64,000 nucleotides of DNA from Acidobacteriota bacterium (GTDB taxonomy: Bacteria > Acidobacteriota > UBA890 > WLXD01): assembly GCA_965205505.1 (NCBI GenBank), contig CBDBHB010000008.1:1257903-1321902 (forward strand), written 5' to 3'. Below the pieces are notes generated by a model. The model was not told the DNA's origin. It was given only the letters and a program-made list of their open reading frames with translations, and did no database searches. Positions 26,770 to 59,546 of this stretch are shown piece after piece. The stretch's first letter is position 1. Each line of letters starts with the position of its first letter. The translations under genes and the position numbers were made by a program.

Positions 26770-27227
26770 CTAGTGGCCTGTAACAGATGATCGTTGCATA
26801 TCGTGGTGGCGAAATGGGTCCGGATGCCAGGCGCGACGACGAGACGATGTTTGCCCATCTTGGAGGAGGAGCAACGCCGCAGACGGGCCGATTTCGCCGC
26901 CATCCTCCGGACAGATGGGCAGTTGCGGGCGATATCGGCGTTGCGCCTCGTCGACGATGCCCCAGCAGGTCGTGGTGGAAGTGTGATGGGTCTGGTTACG
27001 CCGCCAAGGGCGCAGATCCAAGGCGCCGCGTCGCCGGCGATGCCCGTGCGCATCGTCTAGGAGCGGCAACGCCGGAGACGCGCCCTTGGCGGCGTAACCC
27101 GTAGGGTAAGTGCCAGACCCACCACACTTCCATCACGGCCTGCTAGCATCGCCTTCCTCGCCGCGCCTTGATCTCACCCGCAAATCCCATCTGCGATATG
27201 CAACGATCATCTGTTACAGGCCACTAG
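26770..27227. mobile_element. Composite nested MITE: type-A element containing a type-B element
   Basis: Perfect ~30-bp TIRs TGGCCTGTAACAGATGATCGTTGCATATCG between two CTAG; inner element ~26963-27146 with CAGG(t/c)CGTG(g/a)TGGAAGTGTG(a/g)TGGGTCTGG ends; several ERIC-like cores. Confidence 0.85.
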
Positions 27228-27299
27228 TGCAATTGCTCTGGCAACGAAGGCTTCCGTATCCGTTACGTCCAAGCCAACTGCGGACGGGCTTGCCGTCCG

Positions 27300-27429
27300 C
27301 TATCGAGCATCACGACTCTGGCCTTGTCGCAGTTTGCCCCACAACGGCCTGGGAATCCTCCTTCACGATCAAGACCGGCTTGAGGCGGCCGAGCAGCATT
27401 TCTTACGAGCCCAGACGCTTCAGCGCTAA
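27300..27429 (+). pseudogene. TPR-repeat gene fragment
   Basis: HNGLGILLHDQDRLEAAEQHFLRA is a TPR-like helix pair, lacks a start and abuts the MITE. Confidence 0.45.
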
Positions 27430-27655
27430 TATGGACAAGGGTGAGACCGCATTGCCGTAGCGCGGCGAACGGGCGCATCGACATGAAGCCCAGGCGGCCA
27501 GGCGCAAGCTGAAGCGAGCTGCGGGGAAGACGCTTCGAAAGAGCGGCGTGAACAAGGACGCTGAGAGCAGTTGAGGCGATGAGGAGCCGACGCGGCGCTG
27601 CCGACTTCGCCCGACAGAAGGCCGTCAATCACCAACCCCCTACGGAGGTAGCAAC

Positions 27656-27845
27656 ATGGACATGCCGATGATGGCTGCGATGGGACTGTTCCCGCTGGTG
27701 TTCGGGCTGATTCTGGCTCGGCCTGATCATCTACCTAATTGGCCTTGCAACGCGCCTCGTCAGCGCCGTCGAACGGATAGCTGACAACGTTTCGCGGACA
27801 GACCGGCCTGTAGGTTACCGATCCGTTTCCGGTCGGCGCGCTGAG
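27656..27845 (+). pseudogene. Small single-TM membrane protein with a frameshift
   Basis: GGAGG RBS then MDMPMMAAMGLFPLVFGLI; a frameshift near 27712 continues as WLGLIIYLIGLATRLVSAVERIADN. Confidence 0.5.
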
Positions 27846-27875
27846 GTAGATGTGATGCGAATACCGTTTCGTAAT

Positions 27876-28529
27876 TCACGAAACACCCCGCAACCGCAGT
27901 CCGGACCGCGCGAAAGGAAGCACGCCGGCCGTCAGGCCGACGGCGAACATCCCCGCCGGGAAGCTCTGTGGAGTCGTTCCCTCGGCGACGACGCGCCAGT
28001 TCCAGCAGAAGGCGACGATGATGGTCAGCGCTCCGGCGCAGGCGACGGCCCACTCGGCGCGCATCAGGCCCACTGTATCTCCTCGCGCGCGGATACGCTC
28101 GTGCACTCCGAACCCGGTGATGAGGAACACTGACACCAGCATCGGGTAGATGACCGGCCCGAGCCACGGCACCGGAATCAAGAACAGCACGTCCCAGGTG
28201 AACAGCGACGGCGGCCAGCCGAGGAGGAGCCACAGGCCCAGGTAGTAGACGATATCCCAGACGCCGAACAGGAAGGCAAAGACGAAGAAACGATCCAGGC
28301 GGTCGCGGCCGGCAACGATAGCGACGGCGAACAGCATCAGCAGGGTGGTGAGCTCGCGCAGCATCTCGACCGCCAAGATGTGGTCGGGAATGACGACGAT
28401 CGGGAAGCGGAAGCCGTCGGGGTAGTAAAGCTCGCGCAGATACACCACCACCGCAGCCTCGAGAAAGCCGAAGGCTCCGCCAAACAGAGTCAGCCAGGCG
28501 GCGCGGCGCAGCGTGAAACATGCCGACAC
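27876..28529 (-). CDS. Conserved hypothetical membrane protein
   Basis: FLEAAVVVYLRELYYP.GF.FP, E..RE..TL.ML, WDIVYY, WDVLFLIPVPW. Confidence 0.75.
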   Translation of the reverse strand: MSACFTLRRAAWLTLFGGAFGFLEAAVVVYLRELYYPDGFRFPIVVIPDHILAVEMLRELTTLLMLFAVAIVAGRDRLDRFFVFAFLFGVWDIVYYLGLWLLLGWPPSLFTWDVLFLIPVPWLGPVIYPMLVSVFLITGFGVHERIRARGDTVGLMRAEWAVACAGALTIIVAFCWNWRVVAEGTTPQSFPAGMFAVGLTAGVLPFARSGLRLRGVS

Positions 28530-28617
28530 CGCTCCCGCCGTCCGCGCAACGATCACCGCGGTTCTGCATCGGACCACCTCCGACTGGTTACTTCTTGATG
28601 ATAACCGCAGGTACCCC

Positions 28618-28786
28618 CTAGCAGGCCGTGGTGAAGGTGTGGTGGATCTGGTTACAGCGAGTTGGGGCCAGATGCAAGGCGCCCTGACACATGCGATGGC
28701 GTAACCATCGCCTCCTCCTCTCTCCTTGCCTCCACTTCGCAAGACCCTGTCGCCAGACCCACCACACTTCCACCACGGCCTGCCAG
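28618..28786. mobile_element. Type-B CTAG MITE, internally deleted
   Basis: CTAGCAGGCCGTGGTGAAGGTGTGGTGGATCTGG ... CCAGACCCACCACACTTCCACCACGGCCTGCCAG; the interior matches 52429+ and 52540-52550. Confidence 0.85.
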
Positions 28787-28791
28787 ACCTT

Positions 28792-30081
28792 TCAAGTAGT
28801 CTCGATCTGGTGCTGCGCCGCGTCGCGCAGAGGGATTCGCTCGCTGAGCTGGGAGGCAACGGTTTGCCAGCTCCAGCGCCGCACGGCCACATCTCGGGCA
28901 GCCTGCCGCAGCTCACGCTGCCGCGCCGCGGAGAGCCCCAGCACCGATGCGAGCGTCCTTACCAGATCGACCGCGTTGTCGTTTTCGAACGCGGTCATCG
29001 ACGCGGCCCAGTCCGGGTACGCGACCTCCAGCGACTCCGCGACGCTCGCCAGACCCGAGTGCCGCGCAACGATGGACGGCACGCCGCTCGCGGCCGCCTC
29101 GGCGGCAACCATCCCGAACGCTTCCGGGAAGATCGACGGGACGACCCCGACGTCGCAGAGCGGCCACAGCCTCGCAATGTGGCGATGCTCGAGCGCGCCA
29201 GTGAAGAGGACGTCGAGGCCTGCAGCCTGCTCTTCGAGCGCGGCCCGCGAATCGCCGAACCCGACGATCACCGCTCGCGCGTCGAGCTCCCGCAGGGCAT
29301 CGAGCAGCACGTGGACGCCTTTTTCCGAGCTGAGCTTGCCGACGTAGCCGATCGTCGGTTTCTCCTCGGCGAAGAACGCACGAAACCGCTCGGCGTTGCC
29401 CGGATCGGGCAGGCGCTCCGGATCGGCGCCGGTCGGAGCCGCCTCCTGCTCCGACTCGGAAACCAGCTCCGACAGAGCCTCGTCCCGTCGCCGAGGACGG
29501 AAGAGCTCGACGTCGACACCTGGCGGGACCTCTCGCACGCCGCCGAGGTACGGACCGGGACCAAGCGTCTCGACGAGCGCCCGACGCACGTGCTCGCTAC
29601 CGACATAGACCTCGCGAGCTCCGGCCAGCGATATCCTGGCCCAGCGCTGCAGTTCCGCATTGCCGCGAATCGCGTACTCGAGCTCGCTCCCGTGCACCTT
29701 GACCGCGAATGGCTCGCCGAATTCCGCGCCGACCGCCGCGCCGAGCAGCACGTGATTGGTCAGGGTGTAATCAACCGGTAGGAACTCGCGCATGGCGGTG
29801 GCGTTGGCCTGGACGACCCTCTGGCGCTCAGCCCAGGTCGTCTCACCGAGCAGCTTGACCTCGAACCCCTCGTAGTTGTCGCGTACGAAGACCGGCAGCA
29901 CCGGGCCGATGTCCGCACGGATGACCCGTGCGGTCCCGACATCGTGCTCTTCTGGCCTCGGGTCCTGGCATACGACGACAACGTCGTGGCCGAGGCCCGA
30001 CCAAGTGCGGGCGAGGGACCGCGTGTAGACGTTGGAGCCCGTCCCGCCGAGGAGGTAGCCGTGCCAGATGAGGATGCGCAT
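28792..30081 (-). CDS. Glycosyltransferase family 4
   Basis: HGYLL.GTGSNVY, GVD..LF, YVGKL..EKG, PEAFGMVAAEA. Confidence 0.88.
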   Translation of the reverse strand: MRILIWHGYLLGGTGSNVYTRSLARTWSGLGHDVVVVCQDPRPEEHDVGTARVIRADIGPVLPVFVRDNYEGFEVKLLGETTWAERQRVVQANATAMREFLPVDYTLTNHVLLGAAVGAEFGEPFAVKVHGSELEYAIRGNAELQRWARISLAGAREVYVGSEHVRRALVETLGPGPYLGGVREVPPGVDVELFRPRRRDEALSELVSESEQEAAPTGADPERLPDPGNAERFRAFFAEEKPTIGYVGKLSSEKGVHVLLDALRELDARAVIVGFGDSRAALEEQAAGLDVLFTGALEHRHIARLWPLCDVGVVPSIFPEAFGMVAAEAAASGVPSIVARHSGLASVAESLEVAYPDWAASMTAFENDNAVDLVRTLASVLGLSAARQRELRQAARDVAVRRWSWQTVASQLSERIPLRDAAQHQIETT

Positions 30082-30139
30082 CAGGATATCCTGCCGCCAC
30101 TGTAGTGCGGACCAAACTATTTGGGATCGGAGCATCACG

Positions 30140-30595
30140 ATGCCGGCAAAGACCTTCCGACTGCTCCTGGTACTCACCGCGGGCGCCTTCGTCCCGCCCC
30201 GGGGCGCCCCAGTGGGAATCACCCTCACGCACGCTTCGAGCGGCGTCAACCGGAGCTTTGACCAGCGCATCAAGTCCAAGGATTACGGTCCGTTCGCCCT
30301 GACCTGGAGAGTCGTTGGATCGTTCCCTGCCGGCAGCAATCGCTCGATTCAGTGCACCGTCAAGGTCACGCTGAACGGCGAGATCGTCGATGAGTCGGAG
30401 GATACGCTGCAGGTACTCCCCAAGAAGAGCGGAACGACGGGCACGGAGGGCGAAGTCGCGATCGAGTATCCGCTGGGCGGCTTCGAGAACTTCTTTGTCT
30501 ACGTCGACGGCAGCCTCAAGAAGAAGAAGATCACCACGGGGCTCGTGTCGTGTGTCGTCACGTCGGGCGGTGGAGCGGCCGCCTGCGGCTCGTAG
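30140..30595 (+). CDS. Hypothetical secreted beta-rich protein
   Basis: Signal-like N-terminus; ORF fills the gap between genes. Confidence 0.5.
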   Translation: MPAKTFRLLLVLTAGAFVPPRGAPVGITLTHASSGVNRSFDQRIKSKDYGPFALTWRVVGSFPAGSNRSIQCTVKVTLNGEIVDESEDTLQVLPKKSGTTGTEGEVAIEYPLGGFENFFVYVDGSLKKKKITTGLVSCVVTSGGGAAACGS

Positions 30596-30690
30596 CCTGG
30601 TACTGGCTGCAGGCGCTGACGTTGGCATGGCACTACTCCATGCGCGTCTCACCGCACGGAATCCCCCTCAACGACAAGGGGCTCGAGCCG

Positions 30691-31600
30691 ATGACATCGC
30701 TGCTGTCCGACCTGCGCTACGGCGTCCGCATGCTCCTGAAGACGCCGCTCGTGTCGGTGATCGCAACCCTGACGATCGCCATGGGAATAACTCTTACGGT
30801 GCACACCTTCAGCATCGTCTATGGCACCGTCATGCGCGGTCTGCCGCTGCCGAATGACGATCGCTTGATGCAGATCCTGCAGAACAACACCGAGGCGGGC
30901 TTCCAAGGAATGTCGCTGGGGATTCACGACTACCTCGATTCCCGTGATCAGAGCGACACGTTCGAGGAGCTCGGAACGTACTACCGGGGGACGGTGAATC
31001 TGGACGGCGACGATCAGCCGCCGGAGCGGTACGAGGGCGCGTTCGTCTCGGCGAATGCTCTGTCGTTGCTGGGGGTTCCTCCGTTGTTAGGCCGTACGTT
31101 CGTCGCCGGCGAGGACTCTTCGGACGCCGAGGCGTCGATCGTGATCGGCTACGCAGTTTGGCGCAATCGCTTCGGCGGCGACCCGAATATCGTCGGACGA
31201 ACGCTGAGAATCAACGGCGAGACGGGCGCCGTACTCGGCGTCATGCCGGAGGGTTTTCGCTTCCCCTTCAATCAAGAGGTCTGGATACCGCACCGGGCGG
31301 AAGTAGACGAGGAAGTAAACCGTGGCGGCGGACGCTTCGAGACGTTCGGCCGCCTGCGCACCGACGTGAGCGTCGAGGCGGCCGCCGCCGAGATCAGTGC
31401 GATCACCGAGCGGATCAAGACGGTGTTTCCGGAGGAGATGGCGGGTATCGAATCGTACATTTCCCCGTTCGAGCACCGCTACATGCCGCCGCAGATCACC
31501 GCTGCTATGTGGGTACAGCTGGCCGCAGTGTTCGGGGTGCTGCTGATCGCGTGCGCCAACGTCGCCAACCTGTTGCTGGCGCGCGCCTCGGTGCGCGGAC
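30691..31600 (+). pseudogene. Truncated ADOP-type ABC permease
   Basis: DLRYGVR.L.K.P, LGRTF..GED, GVMPEGF.FP, VLLIACANVANLLLARA then an abrupt loss of similarity at about one third of the usual length. Confidence 0.8.
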
Positions 31601-31655
31601 GATGCCCTGCGAATCGAGTAACGTCCCTTTCGGGCCGTGGTGGAAGTGGTGGCTT
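31597..31655. repeat. Scrambled MITE remnant at the permease breakpoint
   Basis: gacgatgccctgcgaatcg (inner hairpin-like), ccctttcggg linker and ggccgtggtggaagtg (type-B TIR). Confidence 0.55.
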
Positions 31656-31659
31656 GCGA

Positions 31660-32763
<1,104 letters not shown>

Positions 32764-32796
32764 TCGTGTTTCCTGTTCGCGTCGCCTGAGGTGTTG

Positions 32797-32828
32797 CAGG
32801 CCGGGTTACGGCGAGTTGAGGCCAGATA
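32797..32828. repeat. MITE remnant forming the 3' end of the hydrolase gene
   Basis: caggccg+ggttacggcgagttgaggccagat matches type-B start plus the 52429 core arm. Confidence 0.55.
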
Positions 32829-33591
32829 CGGAAGCATATTCGAGATGATGGCGAATGGCGTCTATGACGATGGCCGGATGCTCGCGGTGGGGCGCGTGGC
32901 CTCCCGTCACCAACGTGATCTCGAGCTTCGCGCGGCAGCGGGCACGAATGGAGTCGATCTGGGCCAGTGTGCCGTATTCGTCCTCGGTGCCCTGAATAAC
33001 GGTGGTCGGGCAGCCGATCCGAGCTACCGACGACTCGATGTTCCAGTGGCGGAACTCGGGTCGCAGCCAGGTTTGATTCCATCCCTCGAAGGCGCTTGCC
33101 GGGTCGTCATGATGCCGCGCCAGGCGAGCGCGGAGCCCCCCTTTCTCGTACTCGACGCGCGCCTGGCGGGCGCCCTGGATAGTGCGCTCTTCCACGAAGA
33201 CATGCGGGGCAAGCAGCACCAGCCCCTCGGGCTCCTCCACCGGGTCGGAGGCTGCGTTCAGGATGGCAATCGACGCCCCATCGTTATGACCTACCAGCAG
33301 AGGCCGACGCACTCCCAGTGCCTCTATCAGCTCCGGTAGCTCCTGCGACGCCGCCTGGTGCATGAAGTCGACAGGCCACGGAAACGAGCTAGACGGCGTC
33401 GAGCGCCCATATCCGAAACGGCTGTAGGCGAGCACGCTGGCGCCGGTCGCTGCGGCGACGGCGGATGGAAAGCCTCGCCAGGAAGATACCGATCCCAAGC
33501 CATGGTGCAGCAGCACAATGGTCGGTGCGCGGCCCGGCGGCGGCCCCAGCCACTCGTACTCGACTCGCCTTGCCAGCTCGAGGAACGGCAC
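32806..33591 (-). CDS. Alpha/beta hydrolase
   Basis: LLH.GLGS, YSR.GYG, GHNDGASIA (the usual nucleophile Ser is Asn here), QG.EDEYG, GH.PH. Confidence 0.8.
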   Translation of the reverse strand: MPFLELARRVEYEWLGPPPGRAPTIVLLHHGLGSVSSWRGFPSAVAAATGASVLAYSRFGYGRSTPSSSFPWPVDFMHQAASQELPELIEALGVRRPLLVGHNDGASIAILNAASDPVEEPEGLVLLAPHVFVEERTIQGARQARVEYEKGGLRARLARHHDDPASAFEGWNQTWLRPEFRHWNIESSVARIGCPTTVIQGTEDEYGTLAQIDSIRARCRAKLEITLVTGGHAPHREHPAIVIDAIRHHLEYASVSGLNSP

Positions 33592-33608
33592 CGGCTCAGC
33601 GACCGTGG

Positions 33609-33910
33609 CTATCCATCGTCAGTTGGCCGCAGCTTCTGGGCACGCTCGCCGATCAACTCGACTTGCACCATGTCCCCCGCGTCCCCTCCAGCAGCGCGAC
33701 GCAGCTCGTCGTGTAGGAACGGTCGAAACCCGCCGTCGCCGCGTCGCATCAGCGTTGTAGCGCGCTCCCGCTCGCCGACGGTAGCAACCACCGGCGCGGA
33801 TACTGCCAATCGTCGAGCACGGTAGCCACCTTCTGCGGAACGTCGACACAGCGCAGGATCCCTGGCCGGCACACGCGCGCCTTGAACGCCCAGGTAGCAG
33901 CACCGGGCAC
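33609..33910 (-). pseudogene. DUF1905-like protein, frameshifted
   Basis: FKARV...ILRCVDVP.. then a frameshift to PVVATVG....TTLMRRG.G.F..FL...LR..AG..AGD.V.VEL. Confidence 0.55.
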
Positions 33911-33913
33911 CGG

Positions 33914-35086
33914 TCAGTGGCTGCCCTCGTGGGCATGATCAAAGCGCTCGTGATGCTGTCGCAGAAGGTCCTTGCCGTAGTCGTTTCCGTTCGGGGTGCG
34001 CACCACGGCGTGCACGTGGTTGCGGGACGGGGCGTCGCCTTCGAGCGCTATCGGTCGCTGATGATCAAACTCGATCAGGATGACGGGACTGTGCACGCGG
34101 TAATAGAACACCGCGTCATCGTCGGTCGCCCCCGCCCAACCGAACCAGGTGTCGTCGAGGTGCACGCGCGCCTCCACCATGCGTACCGCGGCGTGCTCGT
34201 CTCGCATGTCGCCCACGTACTCGGCGATCAGCTCGATCAACAGGCCTCGCTGTCGTTCGTCGAGGGCGCTGGCGCGGAGCCCCTCGTAGCGCATCTCGAA
34301 GTTATCGCGAAACGCGGCCGTGAAAACGTTACGCGGTAACTCGTCGGCGATCATCGCCACCGCCTGTTGTGCCGCGTTCAGCGATTGCATGAGTGCCAGG
34401 CCGCGCGCTTCTTCATCTTCGAACACGCGCGTGCCAGCGTACTTGCCACCCGCAGCGTACGTCGGCTCGGAGCCCAGGAACGTAGGGGTCATGACCACCT
34501 GGTCGCCAAGCACGAAGTAGTTGATCACCAGATGATGTCCGTCGAGCTGCCAGCCCCACGGCTCCGCTGCAGACGGCGCCCCCATCACCGTGAAGAAGTA
34601 CAGCCCCTCGCCGTACTCCTCGAAATTGTTCACCAACTCAGCGATTGTGGTGTTCAGGCGCATGATGTCGCGCGCTTTCCGCAGCCCCTTCGCCGAAAGG
34701 CTGGCACCCAGAAGCTCGTAAGCGGCGTTGCGTTGGGGCTCCGACATATCGCCGAAGCTCATACCGCGACGGTCGTACCGATGGACGTTGTTCCAGCGCC
34801 TCCACTCGATGTCGTCGACGGCAAAGGTCGTTTCGCTCCGTTGCTCCGCGTCGAGCGTGTCCAGAAAAGCCGCCGCGGCGGTCACCACCGATGCAGTGGA
34901 AACACCGGTGGCGCGCAAAGGAAAGAGATCAGCAACGACTTCACCGTCCGCCGTAATGCCGCGGAACGCCTCTGCAAGCGCAGTTGCCTCCCCGCCCCCC
35001 TGGACCGCGGGCGAGCGGGCCAGCGCATATGCACCTAACGACGCTGCAATTCCGACGACTGCGAACAACCCCAACAAACTTCTCAT
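33914..35086 (-). CDS. DUF3500 domain secreted protein
   Basis: Signal peptide, WGWQLDGHHL..N, TPTFLG, YYRVHSPVILIEFD, HVH.VVRTPNGNDYG. Confidence 0.85.
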   Translation of the reverse strand: MRSLLGLFAVVGIAASLGAYALARSPAVQGGGEATALAEAFRGITADGEVVADLFPLRATGVSTASVVTAAAAFLDTLDAEQRSETTFAVDDIEWRRWNNVHRYDRRGMSFGDMSEPQRNAAYELLGASLSAKGLRKARDIMRLNTTIAELVNNFEEYGEGLYFFTVMGAPSAAEPWGWQLDGHHLVINYFVLGDQVVMTPTFLGSEPTYAAGGKYAGTRVFEDEEARGLALMQSLNAAQQAVAMIADELPRNVFTAAFRDNFEMRYEGLRASALDERQRGLLIELIAEYVGDMRDEHAAVRMVEARVHLDDTWFGWAGATDDDAVFYYRVHSPVILIEFDHQRPIALEGDAPSRNHVHAVVRTPNGNDYGKDLLRQHHERFDHAHEGSH

Positions 35087-35133
35087 ACTTGGCTCCTTCT
35101 CCGACCCCGACCATCGGAACGTCCGTACGCCGC

Positions 35134-36257: not shown

Positions 36258-36345
36258 CTGTGCTCCGCCCCGTACACCGGGTCAGTTTCCAGCGCGCCTT
36301 CAGGCCCGATTTGGGTGCTTCCTCCCTCCAAGAGAAACGTCGCTA

Positions 36346-41084: not shown

Positions 41085-41096
41085 CGCCTTGAGTCG

Positions 41097-46662: not shown

Positions 46663-46967
46663 CAGAGAGCGGCCTCCTGAGGCCATCCGGAAGGGGTAAC
46701 CAATAGCTTACAGGTGCAAGCGGCCGCCGGCACGGTGAGTGGCGTGGCTGATGTGAGCTAGTGCTGCATCGCCAACAACTCCGGCACGGTGACCAACCTG
46801 AACCCTCGCCGAGAGAGGTTGGCGACCATCCACCGCGTCGCGGTGACCACATGGTCCCGCGCGCCGCCTCCGTCGTGGAGCAGGACGATCGAGCCCGGGC
46901 GAACCTGAGTAAGGGTGCGCAGCGCCACGCGCTGAGCCGACCGTGTGCTCCAATCCCTTGCCTGCAC

Positions 46968-48227: not shown

Positions 48228-48859
48228 GGACCTCGCAGCCGTGAGTCCATGGTTCCGTAGGGCGGCCGCAGTAGCCACGGGCGCAGTCCCGTCGCTCTAC
48301 GGATCGCCTCGGCGGCGCGTTCAATCTCGGCGCGGATCTGTGCGTCTGCCAGCGTCGGCAGCGATCGATGCGTGAACGAGTGATTGCCTATGGCATGCCC
48401 CTCGCGCACGATCCGTCTGGCCAGCCCCGGGTGACGCGCCACGTTCTCGCCGATCAGGAAGAACGTCGCGACCACGCCATGATCCCGCAGGACGTCGAGG
48501 ATCTGGGCAGTGTCAGGATCGCGCGGGCCGTCGTCGAAGGTCAGGGCGACGACGGACTCGGAAACGTCGACACTGGAGACGACCTGATCCGATTGCGCCA
48601 AGCTGACGACGCGCTCGAAGGGGGTCGCACGGGCGACCGTACCACTCGCGGCGAGCCCAACTACCAGGGCCACGGAAAACCGTCGCATCATCTCTTGCTC
48701 ATGGTCCCAGGCCGGTGCCCGAGTAAACCGCAGGCGTGCTTGCCTGGCCGGTCGGCCGATATCTTTACGAGCTTTGTATGCCGGCTCCGGCCAGAAACGG
48801 CTCGGTCGGCGGCTAGCAGGCCGAAGGGTTTCGGCCGGCAACGCTCCCACCTCGGTCCG

Positions 48860-49928
48860 CTAGCCGCTTCGGACGTAGATCGTTATGGCGGGTCCGAACA
48901 GAGCCACGAACGCCGGGTTCTCGGCGCTGACCATCTCGATGATGTTCAGGTCGGGCAGCAAGTTCAGCCGCCGGCGGATCGGGACGGCCGTCTTGAGGTG
49001 CTTTTCCAGGTCGCTCTCCGCCTGGCGCTGCTGAGCCGGCTGCGCCAGACCACGGTAGATCACCATGAACGAGAATTCTCGGTGCGCCTTGGTGGACCGC
49101 AGTCCGGAGCCGTAGAGATAGAGCGCCTCCAGCCACGCGAAATCGTCCCAGGTGCCGTCGAGCGAGGCCAGCGAGACTGCCGCCTCCTGCACGGTCATCT
49201 TCGTGATCCGACGACGCCTCGGCTTAGGGCGCGCCGCCTCCTGTGTCGTCGCGGATGGGCCGACTACCTTGATGGCAGCTTTCTTCACCGCGGTCTTCTT
49301 CTTCACCGCGGTCTTCTTCTTCACCGCGGTCTTCTTCTTCACCGCGGTCTTCTTCTTCACCGCGGTCTTCTTCTTCACCGCGGTCTTCTTCTTCACCGCG
49401 GCTTCTTCTTCACTGCAGGCTTCTTCTTCACTGCAGGCTTCTTCTTCACTGCAGGCTTCTTCTTCACTGCAGGCTTCTTCTTCACTGCAGGCTTCTTCTT
49501 CACTGCAGGCTTCTTCTTCACTGCAGGCTTCTTCTTCACTGCAGGCTTCTTCTTCACTGCAGGCTTCTTCTTCACTGCAGGCTTCTTCTTCACTGCAGGC
49601 TTCTTCTTCACTGCAGGCTTCTTCTTCACTGCAGGCTTCTTCTTCACTGCAGGCTTCTTCTTCACTGCAGGCTTCTTCTTCCGCAGGCTTCTTCTTCACC
49701 GCAGGCTTCTTCTTCACCGCAGGCTTCTTCTTCACCGCAGGCTTCTTCTTCACCGCAGGCTTCTTCTTCACCGCAGGCCTTCTTCTTCACCGCGGCCTTC
49801 TTCTTCACCGCGGCCTTCTTCTTCACCGCGGCCTTCTTCTTCACCGCGGCCTTCTTCTTCACCGCGGCCTTCTTCTTCACCGCGGCCTTCTTCTTCGCCA
49901 CTTTCTTCTCGGCCCTTTTCCTGGCCAT
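48860..49928 (-). CDS. Histone-H1-like Lys-rich repeat protein fused to a degenerate nucleotidyltransferase-like domain (apparent frameshifts in the repeat)
   Basis: GAGG RBS, MARKRAEKK, about 34 KKK(A/P/T)AV units, C-terminal LEALYLYGS...FSFMVI domain. Confidence 0.75.
49281..49896. repeat. 18-bp coding tandem repeat, about 34 copies in four sequence blocks
   Basis: cttcttcttcac(c/t)gc(ggt/agg/ggc) units. Confidence 0.95.
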
Positions 49929-50689
49929 GAGATACCTCTCGTCACTCACGAACCTGCCACCAACCGCACCCGGCAAGAAATCCTGAAACATCGCCGGGTA
50001 ACTTCGCTTGATGTTCGTCTTACGGCGAATATAGTACGCATACGAGTTCGTTTTTCGCGCCTCTCGGATCCTCTTATGGACCGGGGCACGTCTTGCGTCA
50101 ATGGGCCGACGCGCCGTTGGACGATTCCATCGACGGCACCCGCTCGGCGCGCAGGCTACGCTGACGACGTGAGCCTACGAGAGCGAGCGAGGTTCTGGCG
50201 ACAGTTCCGGCGGCAATCCGCCACGACTGGGGCACTGACGCCATCCTCCAGATACCTGGCCACGGCCATGGTCCGCCCACTGCGACGGCACCGAAGAACT
50301 ACCTCAGCGGAACCGGTTCAGATTGTCGAGATGGGCCCGGGTACGGGCGCCATCACGCGTGAGATCGCTCGCCTCCTACGGCCCGGCGACATGCTCGATT
50401 GCTACGAGATCGATGACGGATTCGCGAGCTATCTGCAGCAACGGGTGGCCACCGACGAGCTATTCGAAGCGGTGCGCGATGGCGTGCGCGTGCACGTGAT
50501 GCCGGCACAGGCAGCAAGCCTGGACAGCGCCGCTCAGTTCGTCATCTGCAGCCTGCCGCTGAACAACCTGGCGCCCGAAGCTGTACACGACATCTTCCGT
50601 ACGGGTGCGCGACTCCTCGACGGACGGGGGTGGTTCACGTATTTCGAGTACATCGCGTTGCCAGCGCTCAAGCGGCGCTTCACGGGGAT

Positions 50690-50740
50690 TGACCTGACCC
50701 CACGGTTAGTACCACGTCTTATCTCAGTAACTCGGTGCTG
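50690..50740 (-). mobile_element. 51-bp right end of IS-A
   Basis: Exact reverse complement of 48177-48227. Confidence 0.92.
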
Positions 50741-51961
50741 TGACCCCACCCCGAAATCAGTACCAGTCAGAGGTTTAGGATTCGGTGTTCCGAAGCCTCC
50801 GGTTGCCAGCCCCTGGCGAACTCCGTAGGAGTTCGATCGTTCAGTGAGCTGTGTGGTCTGTGGGTATTGTAATCAAGCCTCCAAGCCTCCAGTTTTCGGC
50901 GCGCGTCATCGATCGAGAAGAACAGGTTGGCGTTGAGGCATTCGTCGCGAAGCCGTCCGTTGAAACTCTCGATGAACGCATTCTCCACGGGCTTTCCCGG
51001 CCGAATGAACTCCAACTGCACGCCTCTTCGGTACGCCCAGGAGTCCATCGCCTGGGAGTAGAATTCTGAGCCATTGTCGACGGTGATGACCCGTGGCAAC
51101 GGCCCGGCAAACGACAGCCGCTCGAGTGCTCCAGCCACCGCCTTGCCGGTCATCGACACGCCCGGCTCAAGTAACGGACATTCACGGCTAAACTGATCGA
51201 CCACCGTCAGCACCCGAAACGGCCGGCCACTCTCGAGCCGATCGGTCACGAAGTCCATGCTCCAGCGCTCGTTGGGCCGCTCTGCGGGCGGCAGCACAAG
51301 CCGTATGTGACTCGCCCGCTTGCGCCGTCGCTTTTTGGTCCGTACCTCCAGCCCCTCCTCTCGATAGATCCGATACACGCGCTTCTGGTTCACTACCCAT
51401 CCCTCGCGGCGTAGCAACACGCACAACCTCCGATACCCGAACCGCGGACGCGCCGCGGCGAGCTCGCCAAGACGACGCCGCAGCACGGGGTCGTCCGTCC
51501 TTGTGCTCTGATACCGATGGCTGGTGCGCGACAACTCGATCAGCCGACACGCTCGACGCTCACTGACACGGAACCCGTCCTGCAGGTACCGCACCACCTC
51601 GCGCTTGCGCGCCGGCTTCACACCTTTTTTGACAGCACCTCCTGGAGCATGTGCTTGTCCAAGCTCAGATCTGCCACCAGCTGCTTCAACTTCCGGTTCT
51701 CATGGCGGAGTTGTCGTAGCTCCCGAAGTTCGGCCACGCCCATCCCGGCGAACTTGCGGCGCCACGTGTACAACGTCTGCTCGCTGACGCCCAGCTTGCG
51801 ACACACCTCCTTGATCGGCGTGCCCGCCTCAGCCTGCCGCAGCGCGTAGGCGATCTGCTCGTCCGTGTACCTCTTCCGCTTCATCTGTCCTCCTGCTTGG
51901 AGGACGACGGTACACCGATTTCCTAAACATCAACCTGGCACCGTTTTCGGGGTTTGGGTCA
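50741..51961 (-). mobile_element. IS3-family insertion sequence (IS-B, IS407-like)
   Basis: TGACCC...GGGTCA termini; orfA 51618-51884, orfB 50767-51621, AAAAAAG slippery site at 51624-51630. Confidence 0.93.
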
Positions 51962-52088
51962 GGATCACCGAGCGTCAACGCATCGACGAAGTACGGCGAG
52001 TCAAGCGCAGGCATGGCGCACATGGTGCGGAGACACAGGTGGTCTGGGCCAACCTGCCGCCGGCACGGGCAGTACATCGACGCCTCGA

Positions 52089-52784
52089 CTAGCAGGCCGT
52101 GGTGAAAGTGTGGTGGGACCCCAGTGTTCTGTAACAGAGGTTCGTTGAAACTTGTGGCGCGGCTAGTGGCCTGTAACAGATGATCGTTGCGTATCGCAGA
52201 TGGGATTTGCGGGTGAGATCAAGGCGCGGCGAGGAAGGCGATGCTAGCAGGCCGTGATGGAAGTGTGGTGGGTCTGGCAAGTGGGACTCACGGGCTAGCA
52301 GGCCGTGGTGAAAGTGTGGTGGGTCTGGCAAGTGGGACTCACGGGCTAGCAGGCCGTGGTGAAAGTGTGGTGGGTCCGGCAAGTGGGACTCACGGGCTAG
52401 CAGGCCGTGGTGAAAGTGTGGTGGGTCCGGTTACGGCGAGTTGGGGCCAGATGCAAGGCGGCCTGACACTGGCGATGCCCTAGCCATCGTCGAGGAAGGC
52501 CAACGCCGCAAATGGCCCCAACTCGCCGTAACCCTTCGGGCGACAGGGGGTTGCGCGCGTATTCTGCGTCGTTCCTCGTCAACGATGGGGTTACCATCGC
52601 CCGTGACTCCCACTTGCCCTACGGGTTACGCCGCCAACGGCGCGTCTCCGGCGTCGCCGCTCCTAGACGATGCGCACGGGCATCGCCGGCGACGCGGCGC
52701 CTTGGATCTGCGCCCTTGGCGGCGTAACCAGACCCATCACACTTCCACCACGATATGCAACGATCATCTGTTACAGGCCACTAG
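52089..52784. mobile_element. Stack of nested CTAG MITEs (types B, C, A) including a 51-bp tandem array
   Basis: Ends at 52089 (B), 52121 (C), 52163 (A), 52244/52295/52346/52397 (B); right A-end at 52784; several ERIC-like cores. Confidence 0.88.
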
Positions 52785-53899
52785 CAGCCGCTCAGCGTTG
52801 TGAGGAAAACGTCGATGTCGCCGACGGTATTCCAAATGCCCGGCGACACCCGCAGGCCTCCTTCGCGCAGGCTCACCCCCACGTTCGCCTCCCGAAGCCT
52901 TGCGTGAGCCTCGAGCGTCGCCTCGGTGGTTTGCCCAACGAGGCTCAGGATTGTGGAGCGCTGTTCGGGAATCAGCGAGCTGTCGACGCGAAAGCTGGCC
53001 GGGAGCCCATCTACCAATCGATCGAGAAGCGCCATAGCGTGGGCGGCTACCGCGTCGATACCCGTTTCGACCAAGAACTCGAGCGACTCTGCCATCGCGG
53101 CACCATGGATAAACGCTGCCGTTTCCGGTACGTCGAAGCGGATCGCTCCGGGGCGGTGTCGTGGCTCCAGGTCCACCAGTCGGTTGAAGTCGTCGGCACC
53201 GACGATCGTCGCCCAGTTGAATGTCGGAAGCCGGAGCCGCTCGACCCATGTCGGATGCACATAGGTGACGCCAGTGCCGTAGGGCGACATGAGCCACTTG
53301 TACCCCGCGATCGCCACCACAGACGCCTTGCATCGAGCGACATCGAACGGGATCGCGCCAACCGACTGCGAGGCGTCAACGAGAAAAAGTGCGCCGTGCT
53401 GCTCGCAAGCTGCGCCAATGGCATCGAGGTCGAGGCGCCGTCCATTCGCGAAGTTCACGTGGCCGACGCTCACGACCCGGGTGCGCGGGCAGATTGCCGC
53501 CACCACGTCGTCGGGGTCCACGAACTCCACCTTCACGCCAAGTGCTCGCAGCCCCCGCCAAGGGAGGTTGTTGGCGGGAAACTCCCCGGTCGGTACGACG
53601 ACGCGATCGTCAGCTCTCCATTCGAGACCACAGGCTACAAGGCTGACCCCATGCGACGCCCCGGTGGCCACGGCAATGTCGTGTGGACAGCAACCGAGCA
53701 GCTCCGACGCCGCTCCGCGAATGCGATCGGGAAGGGCGAAGTAGACTCCATCATCGAGCCCGAACGGGTCACGTTTCCAATCCAGAGCGCGCTCGGCGGC
53801 GGCAATCGCTCGGCGTGCCATCGGCCCTTGGTTTGCCCCATCGAGGTAGACGCGCCCGCGTAGATCGAACTCGCAGCTCAGATCGAGCGCGGCTGTCAA
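52781..53899 (-). CDS. Class V aminotransferase / cysteine desulfurase-like
   Basis: YLDGA.QGP, EFPAN, VDASQSVG, GYKWL.SPYG.G, LRVSP. Confidence 0.85.
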   Translation of the reverse strand: MTAALDLSCEFDLRGRVYLDGANQGPMARRAIAAAERALDWKRDPFGLDDGVYFALPDRIRGAASELLGCCPHDIAVATGASHGVSLVACGLEWRADDRVVVPTGEFPANNLPWRGLRALGVKVEFVDPDDVVAAICPRTRVVSVGHVNFANGRRLDLDAIGAACEQHGALFLVDASQSVGAIPFDVARCKASVVAIAGYKWLMSPYGTGVTYVHPTWVERLRLPTFNWATIVGADDFNRLVDLEPRHRPGAIRFDVPETAAFIHGAAMAESLEFLVETGIDAVAAHAMALLDRLVDGLPASFRVDSSLIPEQRSTILSLVGQTTEATLEAHARLREANVGVSLREGGLRVSPGIWNTVGDIDVFLTTLSGC

Positions 53900-54756: not shown

Positions 54757-54820
54757 GACTTGAGCATACTCGCCGCCCTCGGGGCTCGCCGGCTCGAGAA
54801 ACCGGGTGAGTCCGGGAAAG

Positions 54821-56488: not shown

Positions 56489-57044
56489 GGCTGGCGGACA
56501 GCGCCGCCGCCCGCCGCGGCTCCCGGCGACGCGCGTCGAAACTGCCCTCCAATTCCTCGACCTTCGCCAGCAGGCGCTGATCACGCTCGTCGCCGGAGAA
56601 CTCGTTGGCGACCCAAGCCCGTACGATCTCGGAGGCGAGATCGGGCCCGAGAACGCGCGCGCCCAAGCACAGCACGTTGGCGTCTGCGATGCGGCGCGCG
56701 TGCCGCGCGCTCACGGTATTCTGGCAATGTGCGGCGCGAATTCCGGGAATCTTGTTCGCCACGATGCTCGCAGCAGCACCCGAGCCACAGACGACAATGG
56801 CCAGGTCAGCCTCACCCGACAGCACCGCGTGCGCCACGATCGTGACGATGTCGGTAAGGTCCACAGCTTCGCCGAATCCGCTCCCATGAACGCCGTGTTC
56901 TTTGGCGGTATGGCGTTCTTCGCCTAGCTCGGCAACGAGCTTGTCTTTCAGCTGGTCCCCTTCATGATCGGCGCCCAACGCCACACGACGCAACTGTGCA
57001 GTCCGGTCGTTGTCGACTACTGGCCGCCTGGTCGCTATCACCAT
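56475..57044 (-). CDS. rpiB: RpiB/LacAB sugar-phosphate isomerase
   Basis: GADH.G, CGSG, ANK.PGIRAA, ANVLCLGAR; lies between tkt and pgi. Confidence 0.8.
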   Translation of the reverse strand: MVIATRRPVVDNDRTAQLRRVALGADHEGDQLKDKLVAELGEERHTAKEHGVHGSGFGEAVDLTDIVTIVAHAVLSGEADLAIVVCGSGAAASIVANKIPGIRAAHCQNTVSARHARRIADANVLCLGARVLGPDLASEIVRAWVANEFSGDERDQRLLAKVEELEGSFDARRREPRRAAALSASHADS

Positions 57045-57060
57045 GTTCTCATCCGTGCCC

Positions 57061-59088
57061 TCAGGCCTGCTCTAGTAGAGCGCGAGCATTCGCCTCGACG
57101 TTTTCCACGGTGAAACCGAACTCCTTCATGTTGACCGGCGACGGCGCCGACGCGCCGAACTGATCGATGCCGATAACGTGCCCGCGATCACCAGCGTATC
57201 GACTCCAACCGAACGTCGCACCAGCTTCCACCACCAAGCGGCGCTTGACACTCGGCGGAAGCACTGAGTCACGGTATTCGGTTTCTTGGCGCTCGAACAA
57301 CTCCCACGAGGGCATACTCAACACGCGAGCTGCGATGCCGTCCTCGCGGAGACGGCCGTATGCTCCGACCACTAGCTGCAATTCTGATCCGCTGGCGATG
57401 AGAATGATCTCAGGTTCGCCGTCGACGTTGGCGTCGGCAAAGATATACGCGCCGCGGCGAACGTTACTCGCATCTGCGTCAGTTTCCAGCACCGGAAGCT
57501 TCTGCCGTGTCAGCGCAACTGCGACCGGCCCTTCCTCTTCGATCGCCGCCGCCCACGCCTCGCGTGTCTCATTGGCGTCACCTGGTCGAAGCACAACCAG
57601 CCCGGGAATCGCTCGCAGCGACGCCAGCTGTTCGATCGGCTGATGTGTCGGACCATCCTCGCCGAGACCGATACTGTCGTGCGTGTACACATAGATCGTC
57701 GGCAGCCGCATGAGAGCGGCCAGACGGATCGCCGGCCGCATGTAGTCGGAGAAGATGAGGAACGTTCCGCCATACGGGCGCAGTCCGCGGTGCAACGCCA
57801 TGCCGTTCATCATCGCGCCCATGGCGTGCTCGCGAACTCCGAACCTCAGATTCCGACCCTCGAACGCTCCCGGGCCGAGGTCATCGTGACCATCGAGCAA
57901 CGTCTTGTTGGAGCCCGCCAGATCGGCGGAACCGCCAATCATCTCAGGCACTGTGGCGGCCAGCGCATTGAGCACTTTCCCCGAGGCGGCGCGAGTCGCG
58001 ATAGGTCCGTCGTTCGGCTCGAAGCCAGGCAGGCCGCGACCCCAATCAAGAGGCAGGTCCCGCCGGGTACGGCGATCGAGCTCCGCGGCGAGCTGCGGAT
58101 GAGCATCCGCATAACGCTCCATGCCTGCCTGCCAGGACGCCTCCAGACTATTTCCGTCTGATACCGCCCGGCGGAAGTGGGTGGCGACGTCGTCCGGAAC
58201 GTAAAACGGCGGCTCGGCTGGCCACCCTAGCTGGCTCTTGGTAAGCGCCAGCTCGTCTTCACCCAGGGGCTCACCGTGCGCCTTGGCGGTGTTCTCGCGA
58301 TTCGGGCTACCGTACCCAATGCGCGTTTCGATGGCGATCAGCGACGGCTTGTCGTCGACCGCCTTGGCAGCGTGGATGGCGGCATCGATGGCATCGAGAT
58401 CGTTGCCGTCAGACACCGTCTGCGTATGCCAGCCGTAAGCCCGGTGGCGCGCCGGAACATCTTCGGAGAACGCCAGCGCCGTCTCGCCCTCAATGGTGAT
58501 CTTGTTGTCGTCGTACAGCACGACGAGCTTTCCCAGACCGAGATGCCCAGCAAACGATGCGGCTTCGGCCTGTACTCCCTCCATCATGTCGCCGTCGCTG
58601 GCGATCACGAAGGTGTGGTGGTCGACTGGGCGGTGGTCGCCGCGATTGAACTCGGCAGCCAGGCGGGCCTCAGCCAGCGCCATTCCGACGGCGTTGGCGA
58701 AGCCTTGCCCCAGCGGGCCGGTCGTCGTTTCGACGCCTGGTGTTACCCTGTACTCTGGGTGCCCGGGGGTGGCGCTGCCCCATTGTCGGAATCGCTTGAG
58801 CTCCTCCATCGACAGGTCGTAGCCCGTGAGGTGTAGCAACGAGTAGAGGAGCATCGAAGCGTGCCCGGCCGAAAGCACGAAGCGATCACGGTTCGGCCAA
58901 TCCGGGTTACGCGGATTGTGCTTCATGTGCCGAGTCCACAGCACGTAGGCCATGGCGGCGGCTCCCATCGGCATTCCGGGATGGCCGGATTTGGCTCGCT
59001 GAACCGCGTCGGCCGCGAGCATCCGGATAGTGTTTACGGCAAGCGTATCGACCGCGGCGGTGGTCGTTGCTGGCTCAGCCGTCGGCAT
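57061..59088 (-). CDS. tkt: Transketolase
   Basis: [39 protein letters not shown]. Confidence 0.96.
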
Positions 59089-59267
59089 CCCTTTCCCCTT
59101 GAATTACCTAGCACGCCGTAGCTGCGACGTGCCCCTCCGTCGCGCAATGTTGCCCTGGCACGAGCGGCCACAGTGTAGCAGCAGGGAGCCGGTCCATTGA
59201 TTCGGCGGCCTGGCCCTTCGCGGCCCGAAAAAATCGCCTTCGTAGCGCTTGCCCGGCTTGCTACCAT

Positions 59268-59546
59268 CTAGTGTCCTGTAACAGAGGTTCGTTGCATATT
59301 GTGGCGCGCGCGACTGAGTCGGAACCAAGGAGGCTCGACGACGGCGATGCTGTGCGTATCGCAGAGGAGGGCCGACGCCGGAGGTGGCCAGTCCCGCGGC
59401 CACCCGGAGGGCTGGGTCGATATGGGGGCAATCTCAGCGTTGCGATTCGTCGACGATGGCCACCGCATCGCCATCCTCATCGCGCCTTGAGCTTGCCCCC
59501 ATCTCGACCCAGCAATGTGCAACGAACCTCTGTTACAGGACACTAG
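59268..59546. mobile_element. Complete type-C CTAG MITE with two opposed ERIC-like cores
   Basis: CTAG-TGTCCTGTAACAGAGGTTCGTTGCA ... TGCAACGAACCTCTGTTACAGGACA-CTAG; a type-B end (CAGGCCGTGGTGAAA) starts on the same right CTAG. Confidence 0.9.

Follow-up and report, generated by a model that had tools for sequence, protein, structure and literature searches.

Several repeats in the window, the whole 64-kb stretch of acidobacterial DNA analyzed here, have interiors whose stems differ in sequence but which were proposed to share one strand-specific fold. Is this interior, termed the core, a selected structure or merely the decayed remnant of a transposon? The three sequence strings quoted in the original prediction were all found exactly in the window. 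When the ~105-nt hairpins at these loci were folded, none of 200 shuffled sequences was as stable as the sense strand (Table 1), and each hairpin was closed by an outer stem of 20–21 bp, close to the ~20 bp anticipated for complete copies. Inward from the outer stem the rod comprises a tandem G·A pair, a 3-bp stem and a conserved AAGGC/AACGC loop, followed by a 5-bp stem, a conserved GACGnn/GAGGA loop that contains one covarying C-G pair, a 7-bp stem in which one G·T pair is conserved, and the terminal loop. The core spans ~84 nt in the covariance model (CM). The opposite strands of the three hairpins folded only 1.3–3.5 kcal/mol more weakly. Thus, strand-specificity resides in the loop sequences and mismatch types and not in the folding energy. 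Overall, there is good support for the core being a hairpin module at the center of non-coding MITEs that form a large group, apparently without a name.

The CM was built from 24 copies of the core from the same genome and gave seven sense-strand matches in the window. The best of these (52439–52522) scored 100.7 bits compared to 24.5 bits for its antisense strand, and belongs to the 'GGCCT' subfamily which is the commonest in the genome. Among the further copies that had been suggested, those near 59300 and 26810 proved to be diverged cores (50.9 and 48.9 bits, respectively), whereas those at 8915 and 28675 are only partial. The latter lies in a deletion chimera without a CM match at E ≤ 0.01, a threshold at which the degenerate core at 52566–52615 also was missed. 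In contigs from four runs, positions 26962 and 27146 are separated by ACT or ATT, the intact loop sequence of other copies. Both insertion of one element into the core loop of another and chimeras formed by deletion can be seen in the window.

Table 1. Core-bearing elements and their parts in the window; blank strand cells denote features without an assigned strand.
Feature	Position	Strand	Evidence or remarks
Truncated A-type element: left TIR and about three quarters of core	8860–8963	+	Sequence comparison
Core match of truncated A-type element	8902–8978	+	CM 32.4 bits
A-type two-core MITE, 458 bp including nested insert	26770–27227		TIRs 34 nt, 100% complementary
TIRs of this A-type MITE	26770–26803 and 27194–27227		Each starts CTAG
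Diverged core, left arm of A-type element	26812–26893	+	CM 48.9 bits, E 7.9e-9
Half of A-type right-arm core, terminal loop cut by nested element	26924–26962	- (sense strand)	Repeat comparison
B-type single-core MITE, ~185 bp, nested in A-type core loop	26962–27146		Repeat comparison, read contigs
Full hairpin of 'GCCGC' core including 20-bp outer stem	26994–27099	+	
Core hairpin, subfamily 'GCCGC'	27004–27088	+	CM 90.8 bits; fold -77.5 kcal/mol, z -8.4
Second half of interrupted A-type core	27146–27190	-	Repeat comparison
B-type deletion derivative, 169 bp	28618–28786		Core 5′ half joined to 3′ half of inverted second core
B-type outer-stem fragment	32791–32831	+	Repeat comparison
Nest of at least four elements	52087–52785		A-type element split in core loop by B-type elements
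A-type parts within nest	Left part 52162–52244; right repeat 52751–52784		
Tandem array, 51 bp x 3.6	52243–52427	+	B-type terminal repeat plus 20 nt
Full hairpin of 'GGCCT' core	52429–52533	+	
Core hairpin, subfamily 'GGCCT'	52439–52522	+	CM 100.7 bits; fold -72.9 kcal/mol, z -9.9
Second core, degenerate, of the B-type element with the 'GGCCT' core	52566–52615	-	Loose regular expression only
Core hairpin, inverted copy of 27004–27088 type	52635–52719	-	CM 82.8 bits; inverted repeat 148 nt, 97%
A2-type two-core MITE, 279 bp	59268–59546		TIRs 34 nt, 97%
TIRs of A2-type MITE	59268–59301 and 59513–59546		
Diverged core, left arm of A2-type MITE	59311–59393	+	CM 50.9 bits
Full hairpin of 'GCGAT' core	59410–59512	-	
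Core hairpin, subfamily 'GCGAT'	59421–59504	-	CM 91.6 bits; fold -62.7 kcal/mol, z -7.0

Genome-wide, nhmmer located 352 core matches (169 on the plus and 183 on the minus strand), and the CM matched at least 150 (150 candidates scored); 13 subfamilies have at least eight copies each. The elements are multicopy, non-coding MITEs of 150–300 bp whose TIRs enclose a single core or a pair, the paired cores facing inward from the two ends. Adjacent cores were arranged as plus then minus in 134 pairs compared to eight in the reverse order, and all 26 pairs at loci of other genomes had the former arrangement. Adjacent end pairs in the genome were of A-type in 49 cases and of B-type in 84, and the core is common to elements with unrelated ends. 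Flank statistics favor TA, preferably within CTAG, as the probable target in this genome. At flanks other than CTAG the outer base varied ten times and the inner base twice, which fits with TA duplication; no empty site was recovered for the MITE insertions. The elements recreate CTAG targets at which further insertions pile up, and short-read contigs break at the core elements.

Covariation was assessed in three alignments. In A1 (24 sequences), 93.2% of cells were paired compared to 77.3% after shuffling, 15 of 28 pairs had changed on both sides, and cells changed on both sides numbered 100 compared to 41.2 in shuffled and at most 15 in slid controls. In A4 (121 distinct sequences), for which 80 of 100 source loci were picked by a pattern that fixes the loop words, the corresponding values were 92.7 and 72.9% of cells, 24 of 28 pairs, and 540 cells compared to 148 ± 10.5 and at most 123. 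Alignment A5 (56 distinct sequences) consists solely of CM-found copies, and both the CM and alignments fitted to it favor the modelled structure as well as G·U; here 91.2% of cells were paired (67.2% shuffled), 24 of 28 pairs and all seven pairs of the inner stem changed on both sides, and 320 cells did so compared to 82 ± 8 in shuffled and at most 77 in slid controls. As the sequences are related, the p-values overstate the significance. RNAalifold independently returned the same helices with 24 pairs, 22 of which showed compensatory change, and the pair inside the internal loop was CG in 48 and GC in five cases. Thus, as had been predicted from a few copies, the four core helices covary and the purine-rich internal loops are fixed, and this holds in at least three phyla. 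Much of the covariation separates subfamilies.

Mismatch types were informative about the strand. Between lineages, G·T pairs outnumbered A·C pairs by 126 to 21, one conserved G·T pair was observed 82 times compared to zero, and the consensuses of 40 clusters (80% identity) contained 55 G·T and nine A·C pairs. In contrast, private mutations in 309 copies of the 13 subfamilies of this genome showed no significant G·T excess (53 G·T vs. 39 A·C, p = 0.17), and substitutions had accrued at 3.8% in loops and 2.7% in stems. The inserted copies decay about neutrally. Thus, the expectation that G·T pairs work on one strand only is upheld between lineages, but neither by private mutations nor by the nearly equal folding energies of the two strands. 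As private mutations spare neither the loops nor G·T pairs, selection acts on propagating lineages and not on each inserted copy. Similarly, the proposal of a selected single-stranded module holds for covariation, fixed loops and mismatch bias at the lineage level, but does not extend to protection of individual copies. The data support the view that the core is real, is maintained by selection, and is more than a decayed transposon interior: its helices covary, its loops are fixed, and it is common to unrelated ends.

A reading without function is quite improbable. In this scenario palindromic MITE interiors are reshuffled by nested insertion and deletion, arm-to-arm template switching keeps the pairing, and covariation is a marker of subfamilies, as the neutral decay of copies, the core-loop insertions and chimeras of the window, and the largely subfamily-separating covariation would suggest. 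However, template switching should remove bulges and mismatches, whereas asymmetric loops and a G·T pair persist in three phyla and in an AT-rich copy from a MAG labelled CPR. The scenario also predicts no excess of G·T over A·C, and the polarity of the core relative to the ends is fixed.

Transcripts of Correia/NEMIS elements fold and are processed. The core similarly might act at the RNA level in read-through transcripts, as a processing, stability or insulating structure comparable to ERIC and Correia, and carrier lineages might spread through a lower insertion cost or a benefit to neighboring genes. Structured RNA typically combines covarying helices and conserved purine-rich internal loops with tolerance of G·U and a conserved G·U pair, as seen in the core, and an inward core pair offers a sense core first to transcripts that enter from either side. 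ERIC transcripts influence mRNA stability in an orientation-dependent manner (excerpts of PMC2229807). Nevertheless, this explanation appears unlikely: private mutations reveal protection of neither loops nor wobble pairs in inserted copies, the commonest subfamily shows no preferred orientation with respect to the coding strands around it (17 vs. 17), nor do the 19 single-core elements, and neither a T-run terminator nor a promoter-like site was detected in the two elements scanned.

The core extends beyond this genome to soil bacteria of other phyla. Among the genomes sampled, the CM matched 41 of 151 in Acidobacteriota (31 of 105 genera), 17 of 121 in Planctomycetota and eight of 101 in Gemmatimonadota, and single elements occurred in MAGs labelled Akkermansiaceae and CPR. 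The element ends differ among phyla and the core is retained. No Rfam family matched the window at the gathering threshold, and at E ≤ 10 only generic miRNA-hairpin models appeared (≤29.8 bits compared to thresholds of 40 to 168 bits); an established Rfam family therefore does not explain the core.

Compared with the ends of IS-a, an IS630-family element of genome G039, the A-type ends agree at 27 of their first 31 bases, and they agree at 20 of 24 bases with the ends of an IS630-family IS of this genome (G000). The transposases of both ISs possess HTH and DDE_3 domains, and the core is absent from these ISs. As A-type ends match those of IS630-family ISs, an IS630-type DDE transposase is the most likely mover of the A-type MITEs, judging from the end sequences. 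The commoner B-type ends were without an autonomous partner in this genome. Of the core-positive Acidobacteriota genomes, 21 of 41 had a DDE_3 match, as did 36 of the 110 genomes of this phylum that were core-negative. The 20 core-positive genomes without a match include the near-complete G069, G002 and G055, all of which contain at least 29 cores. Y1_Tnp (PF01797) gave no match in this 96%-complete genome, compared to positive control searches in six of 14 reference genomes.

Could the core instead be recognized by an enzyme dedicated to single-stranded DNA, such as an HUH/Y1 transposase or a tyrosine recombinase, with the TIRs as a mere hairpin base? The ends of IS200/IS605, REP-RAYT and integron attC sites would be the models. 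A fold specific to one strand, in which unpaired bases are fixed and stems free to vary, ends that diverge widely among phyla while the core is kept, and the many carriers without an IS630-type gene are compatible with this possibility. However, it is highly improbable in view of the Y1_Tnp result and the IS630-like A-type ends, and no co-occurring gene was found. Moreover, the paired cores lie on opposite strands, unlike the one-strand hairpins of IS200/IS605-type PATE and REP-RAYT systems, and the elements are dispersed and not in arrays next to an integrase.

The original prediction also placed the core in a wider ERIC-like superfamily. An AAGGYRGC-56 nt-GCYAACGC junction indeed occurs in six E. 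coli K-12 ERIC-type copies, as had been stated, compared to zero and one matches for the reversed control pattern, and AAGGC...AACGC is nearly invariant in the acidobacterial core. This is a motif common to the core and some ERIC copies which does not prove membership. The CM, in a search of E. coli K-12 that doubled as negative control, found no match genome-wide at E ≤ 10. A failure of the model to detect ERIC had been named in the original prediction as refuting it, and the superfamily claim is therefore unsupported. With filters off, 12 K-12 ERIC loci gave 20.6 and 15.5 bits, no better than the background of 17.1 and 16.3 bits, and the best match was confined to the outer 48 of the model's 84 positions; between ERIC and core, 21 nt match and 36 model positions mismatch. 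The ERIC2 primer, with up to three mismatches, has no match in this genome compared to 12 in K-12, and AAC is missing at the junction in six to seven of the 12 primer-defined K-12 copies. Kinship of the core with E. coli ERIC thus would be only partial on this comparison. The accompanying statement that the mobilizing enzyme of ERIC is unknown is outdated, as ERIC is entered in ISfinder under the name MITEEc1, with IS630 as its type (excerpts of PMC11602168 and PMC6267812).

It is improbable that the core is a true remote homolog of ERIC/MITEEc1, with a common IS630-type hairpin-MITE ancestor from which the AAGGC/AACGC junction would have survived as the functional part. The junction with its control, the predicted ERIC fold that sets AA and AAC as in the core, the location of filters-off matches on the ERIC strand, the TA ends of both long-hairpin MITEs (excerpts of PMC2229807) and their links to IS630 (for ERIC, excerpts of PMC11602168 and PMC6267812) point toward homology. 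The 36 unmatched positions, scores no better than those of unrelated sequence, the failure to match K-12 genome-wide, the copies without AAC, and the absence of the ERIC central repeat from this genome by the ERIC2 search point away from it.

Other likenesses can be drawn. ERIC (IRU, RU-1) and the core MITEs alike are non-coding, multicopy, long imperfect hairpins with TA termini and a target duplication, the latter probable for the core MITEs (for ERIC, excerpts of PMC2229807); ERIC shares the IS630 tie with A-type MITEs, and a subset of its copies shares the stem-AA-GGC...GCC-AAC-stem junction with the core. Unlike the core MITEs, ERIC is ~127 bp, enterobacterial, and possesses a 7-bp TIR; its central inverted repeat with the ERIC1R/ERIC2 primer sites is unmatched here, and ERIC has nothing equivalent to the core's GACG/GAGGA loop and its two inner helices. 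The IS630-mobilized RUP MITEs of Streptococcus pneumoniae resemble these elements in IS630-like terminal repeats, insertion into mobile elements and insertion at TA, the probable target of the core MITEs (for RUP, excerpts of PMC2229807), but the excerpts report no cross-phylum interior with covarying helices and fixed loops. Correia/NEMIS elements of Neisseria likewise are TA-flanked hairpin MITEs with TIRs (excerpts of PMC2229807), but are restricted to a single genus and conserved over the whole element.

The favored explanation, which as a whole is given a little less than an even chance, is that the core may be a cis-acting single-strand structure that raises the chance of a MITE's propagation. 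The selected fold would be that of the strand which runs 5′ to 3′ inward from the nearest end. By the most likely route, DNA exposed during replication or transposition would fold within the strand, with the core as nucleus, and both terminal repeats would thereby be brought together for the transposase; the fixed purine-rich loops would provide the contact surface for a putative, widely conserved factor. In the hairpin model of MITE amplification, intrastrand folding pairs the terminal repeats. IS630/Tc1-type transposases act on double-stranded DNA, and a single-strand step therefore is outside the textbook mechanism. The almost equal folding of both strands and the second cores of many elements, which are one stem short (their consensus retains 17 of 28 pairs), count against this explanation. 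The 20 of 41 core-positive Acidobacteriota without a DDE_3 match and the commoner B-type ends without an autonomous partner count against it as well.

Integron attC sites preserve a structure and a few unpaired bases on one active strand while their stem sequences drift. Their likeness to the core, a single-strand fold with fixed unpaired bases and drifting stems, is an analogy of mechanism only: attC sites form arrays beside an integrase without TIRs or TA duplication, and no integrase link was seen for the core elements. A broader reading is possible, though doubtful, in which the core would be a portable module of single-stranded RNA or DNA that is read through its fixed purine-rich loops by a putative conserved factor, has been captured repeatedly by different transposon ends in at least three phyla, and has the ERIC junction as a remote relative.

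MITEs usually keep their ends while the interior drifts. In the core MITEs the interior is better conserved than the ends, and this inverted conservation, with an interior kept across phyla between unrelated ends, bears the hallmarks of a selected fold. As an abundant structured motif that is absent from Rfam, the core is also expected to turn up again and again in soil metagenomes and to be mistaken for a 'novel ncRNA'. Should the fold promote mobility, the elements would provide a system for studying how MITEs outgrow their parent ISs, and if a host factor reads the fold, the core would point to that factor. If the portable-module reading is correct, the core would be a structured nucleic-acid signal of mobile DNA that forms a class of its own, new and akin to attC.

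The three core strings described in the original prediction are present in the window as written, and each lies inside a hairpin of ~105 nt with an outer stem of 20-21 bp. Fold energies of the three hairpins are -72.9, -77.5 and -62.7 kcal/mol (z values of -9.9, -8.4 and -7.0), and none of 200 shuffles of each sequence folded as well. The opposite strands fold more poorly by only 1.3-3.5 kcal/mol. A covariance model (CM) termed R1 was built from alignment A1, which comprises 24 copies of the core from the genome of origin, four of them in the window. R1 detected seven sense-strand copies in the window, the best of which scored 100.7 bits on the sense strand compared to 24.5 bits on the antisense strand. 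The further copies that had been proposed require qualification at two positions: that at 8915 is a truncated element, and that at 28675 is a deletion chimera consisting of two half cores which R1 missed. Rfam searches gave no match in the window at gathering thresholds, and two element regions searched at E<=10 yielded generic hairpin models only. A K-turn was considered by eye for the GACG/GAGGA loop and rejected, as the strand expected to be unbulged has four extra bases.

Covariation of the stems around conserved loops, as originally proposed, was borne out in alignments A1, A4 and A5 and by RNAalifold. Among the 100 loci of A4, 80 were chosen by a pattern with fixed loop words; A5 comprises only loci found with the CM in Acidobacteriota, Planctomycetota and Gemmatimonadota. 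A5 and a further core alignment, A2, include one row (L028) from an unpublished genome (G049), and no result rests on this row alone. Within A5 the inner stem showed changes on both sides at 7/7 pairs. RNAalifold, which made its own structure prediction, recovered the same helices with compensatory change in 22 of 24 pairs, as well as an additional covarying pair within the 6x5 loop between the C of GACG and the middle G of GAGGA (CG 48, GC 5). The words CAAGGCG, GACG, GAGGAG and CAACGC are fixed across cores.

Pairing and two-sided change in core alignments (A4 and A5 were fitted to the model; the sequences are related, and a large share of the covariation signal separates subfamilies)
Alignment	Source	Sequences	Paired cells (shuffled)	Pairs with two-sided change	Cells with two-sided change (shuffled; slid)
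A1	own genome	24	93.2% (77.3%)	15/28	100 (41.2; <=15)
A4	100 loci of other genomes	121 distinct	92.7% (72.9%)	24/28	540 (148±10.5; <=123)
A5	46 CM-found loci	56 distinct	91.2% (67.2%)	24/28	320 (82±8; <=77)

Stem mismatches between lineages comprised 126 G·T compared to 21 A·C, a count that leaves out one pair at which G·T was present in 82 sequences and A·C in none. The corresponding values for 40 cluster consensuses (80% identity) were 55 and 9. The core is a strand-specific fold with fixed loops. Private mutations were assessed in 309 copies that belong to 13 subfamilies of the genome of origin, each with at least eight copies and with differing stem sequences. These mutations yielded 53 G·T and 39 A·C mismatches (p=0.17), and the substitution rate of 3.8% in loop columns of the same copies was slightly above the 2.7% in paired columns. 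Thus, the strand specificity of the original prediction holds as a G·T excess between lineages, but there is no significant excess among inserted copies in this genome. The lineage-level excess coupled with the lack of protection in private mutations indicates that the fold is kept where lineages propagate: selection acts at the lineage level and inserted copies decay about neutrally. Separately, of the copies of the commonest core subfamily, 14 lie on the G-rich strand and 37 on the opposite one (p=0.002, uncorrected for six tests), an unreplicated bias from one genome; no such replication-strand bias was evident in five other subfamilies of this genome.

The genomic context of the copies was also assessed. 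The flanking TAG served as the stop codon of an ORF with 100 or more codons at 28/102 element sides, on each side, compared to 21% for all CTAG sites, so that stop codons are not clearly enriched. Elements showed no orientation bias relative to flanking coding strands, with 17 against 17 copies in the commonest subfamily, and the two elements scanned contained no promoter or terminator consensus. As gene-strand bias, a clear stop-codon excess and promoter or terminator consensus all were absent, a host function at each inserted copy has no support.

Cores are enclosed by short elements whose ends are terminal inverted repeats (TIRs) starting with CTAG. Two unrelated kinds of TIR, A-type (142 end matches in the genome of origin) and B-type (285), were distinguished and a third kind bounds some copies; the core is independent of the kind of end. 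Elements with one core span ~165-185 bp and those with two cores ~280 bp. Adjacent core pairs in the genome of origin were arranged '+ then -' in 134 cases versus '- then +' in eight, and all 26 of 26 pairs at loci of other genomes were '+ then -'. Therefore, the sense strand of each core runs 5' to 3' inward from the nearest end, and the polarity of the core relative to the ends is fixed. The genome (5.98 Mb, nine contigs) contains 76 strict or 90 loose regex matches to the core, at least 150 CM matches and 352 nhmmer matches. Elements also are nested in the window, and contigs from four sequencing runs bridge the insertion of one element within another with the uninterrupted loop letters known from other copies. 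Read-derived contigs over window positions 24000-34000 end at repeats and none had an empty site.

Among flanks that deviate from CTAG, the outer base varied 10 times and the inner base twice, which fits duplication of TA inside a preferred CTAG, with G...C being the ends of the element itself. Six DDE_3 matches were detected in the genome of origin. The ends of a two-copy IS in this genome resemble the A-type TIR at 20/24 bases, as do those of a 24-copy IS of another genome, G039, at 27/31 bases. The transposases of both ISs possess the HTH plus DDE_3 architecture of the IS630 family. No core was found in either IS, and the core is absent from the parent IS. The G039 IS630 elements were dismissed as core carriers: they are merely neighbors of MITEs with which they have one CTAG in common. 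No partner IS for B-type ends was found in the genome of origin, nor any '+ ... -' core pairs 500-5000 bp apart. Pairs of B-type ends 1.4-4.8 kb apart were rejected as an autonomous element as they enclose host genes, and lone ends are truncated elements rather than signs of an autonomous partner. DDE_3 was present in 21/41 core-positive versus 36/110 core-negative Acidobacteriota genomes (tallies that include unpublished G049); three near-complete genomes with at least 29 cores each (G069, G002 and G055) gave no DDE_3 match. A search of the genome of origin for Y1/HUH transposases found none.

Additional mobile and repetitive sequences were observed. An IS110-family IS outside the window, whose copies emerged from a blastn self-comparison of the genome, occupies the junction CTAG|TGGCCTG where A-type MITEs end and appears to target the MITE end. 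CTAG occurs only 5853 times in the 5.98 Mb genome; with each insertion of an element two CTAG sites are formed anew, and ISs and MITEs accumulate around shared ones.

Coordinates of elements and repeats (C8 and C9 are contigs of the genome of origin; L079 and L159 are loci of a Candidatus Spechtbacteria MAG)
Feature	Position	Detail
B-type element nested in terminal loop of A-type core	window 26962-27146	contigs of four runs
Nest of elements	window 52087-52785	at least 4 elements
51-bp unit (B-type terminal repeat + 20 nt)	window 52243-52427	3.6 tandem repeats
Two inverted IS3-family copies	window 46959-48237, 50685-51968	rve domains
IS3-family ends	window 48177-48227 / 50690-50740	51-nt perfect inverted repeat flanking 2.4-kb segment
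18 bp x 34 tandem repeat	window 49281-49896	97% matching; ORFs holding it long, without Pfam match save weak sub-cut-off methyltransferase
IS630-family IS, genome of origin	C9:2198453-2199637	
IS110-family IS, ~1.43 kb (DEDD_Tnp_IS110 + Transposase_20)	C8:750638-752064, C9:68565-70004, about 28 more	~30 copies
Spechtbacteria element	L079 5552-5634 (= L159 1501-1583)	intergenic, no transposase nearby

The CM matched 41/151 genomes of Acidobacteriota (31/105 genera), 17/121 of Planctomycetota, some with 25-37 or more copies, and 8/101 of Gemmatimonadota. The exact loop pattern was found in more than 104 stretches of species-representative genomes; among the matches listed, most were from Acidobacteriota MAGs, and the others were in records titled Planctomycetota, Gemmatimonadota, Akkermansiaceae and Candidatus Spechtbacteria. 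Whole-genome counts in these five records were 7, 29, 20, 2 and 1. The Akkermansiaceae and Candidatus Spechtbacteria copies could be binning errors; in the latter, a CPR copy, however, the stems that flank the fixed words are AT-rich. The Spechtbacteria MAG (~0.6-Mb CPR genome) contains a single two-core element with stems of 45% GC that scored 42.3 bits. Element ends vary from phylum to phylum. Viral contigs gave no matches to the exact loop pattern, and plasmids gave none in blastn with a 105-nt hairpin.

The original prediction placed the core in a superfamily with the enterobacterial ERIC repeat. Twelve ERIC copies of E. coli K-12 were located by the ERIC2 primer and searched with R1 with filters off. 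Four copies scored 20.6, 15.5, 8.8 and 7.9 bits on the ERIC strand, compared to unrelated matches of 17.1 and 16.3 bits in the same 36 kb of K-12, and R1 found no match genome-wide. The alignment was restricted to the junction GCAAGGCGGC ... GCCAACGCCGC, with the inner 36 model positions skipped. The pattern AAGGYRGC-56 nt-GCYAACGC occurs in six K-12 copies (reversed control 0 and 1), and predicted folds of these six put AA and AAC where the core has them. In contrast, the majority ERIC type is without AAC at the corresponding position, and the ERIC central repeat was not found in the genome of origin. According to passages in PMC11602168 and PMC6267812, ERIC is MITEEc1 of IS630 type and is related to IS630-like MITEs of Photorhabdus; PMC2229807 describes TA at its termini and effects on mRNA that depend on its orientation. 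ERIC and the core family are alike in kind and have one small motif, the junction, in common, which does not establish membership or the proposed superfamily.

The core may favor propagation of the element by acting in cis in single-stranded form. In the favored route, exposed DNA would fold and thereby bring the terminal repeats together, as in the hairpin model of MITE amplification. MITE-specific interiors reportedly enhance Stowaway transposition, which provides a precedent. The mirror arrangement of cores would suit a read-through transcript just as well as a lagging-strand template, and therefore RNA and ssDNA are not separable. Literature searches of main texts found no description of the core or of such an acidobacterial or planctomycete MITE, and the MITE sequences in the supplements of PMC11602168 might include the core; as far as these searches reach, the structure-conserving MITE interior is undescribed. 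The core is real, abundant and selected. The elements that carry it belong to a known kind, the hairpin MITE, for which a cross-phylum, structure-conserving interior is unusual.
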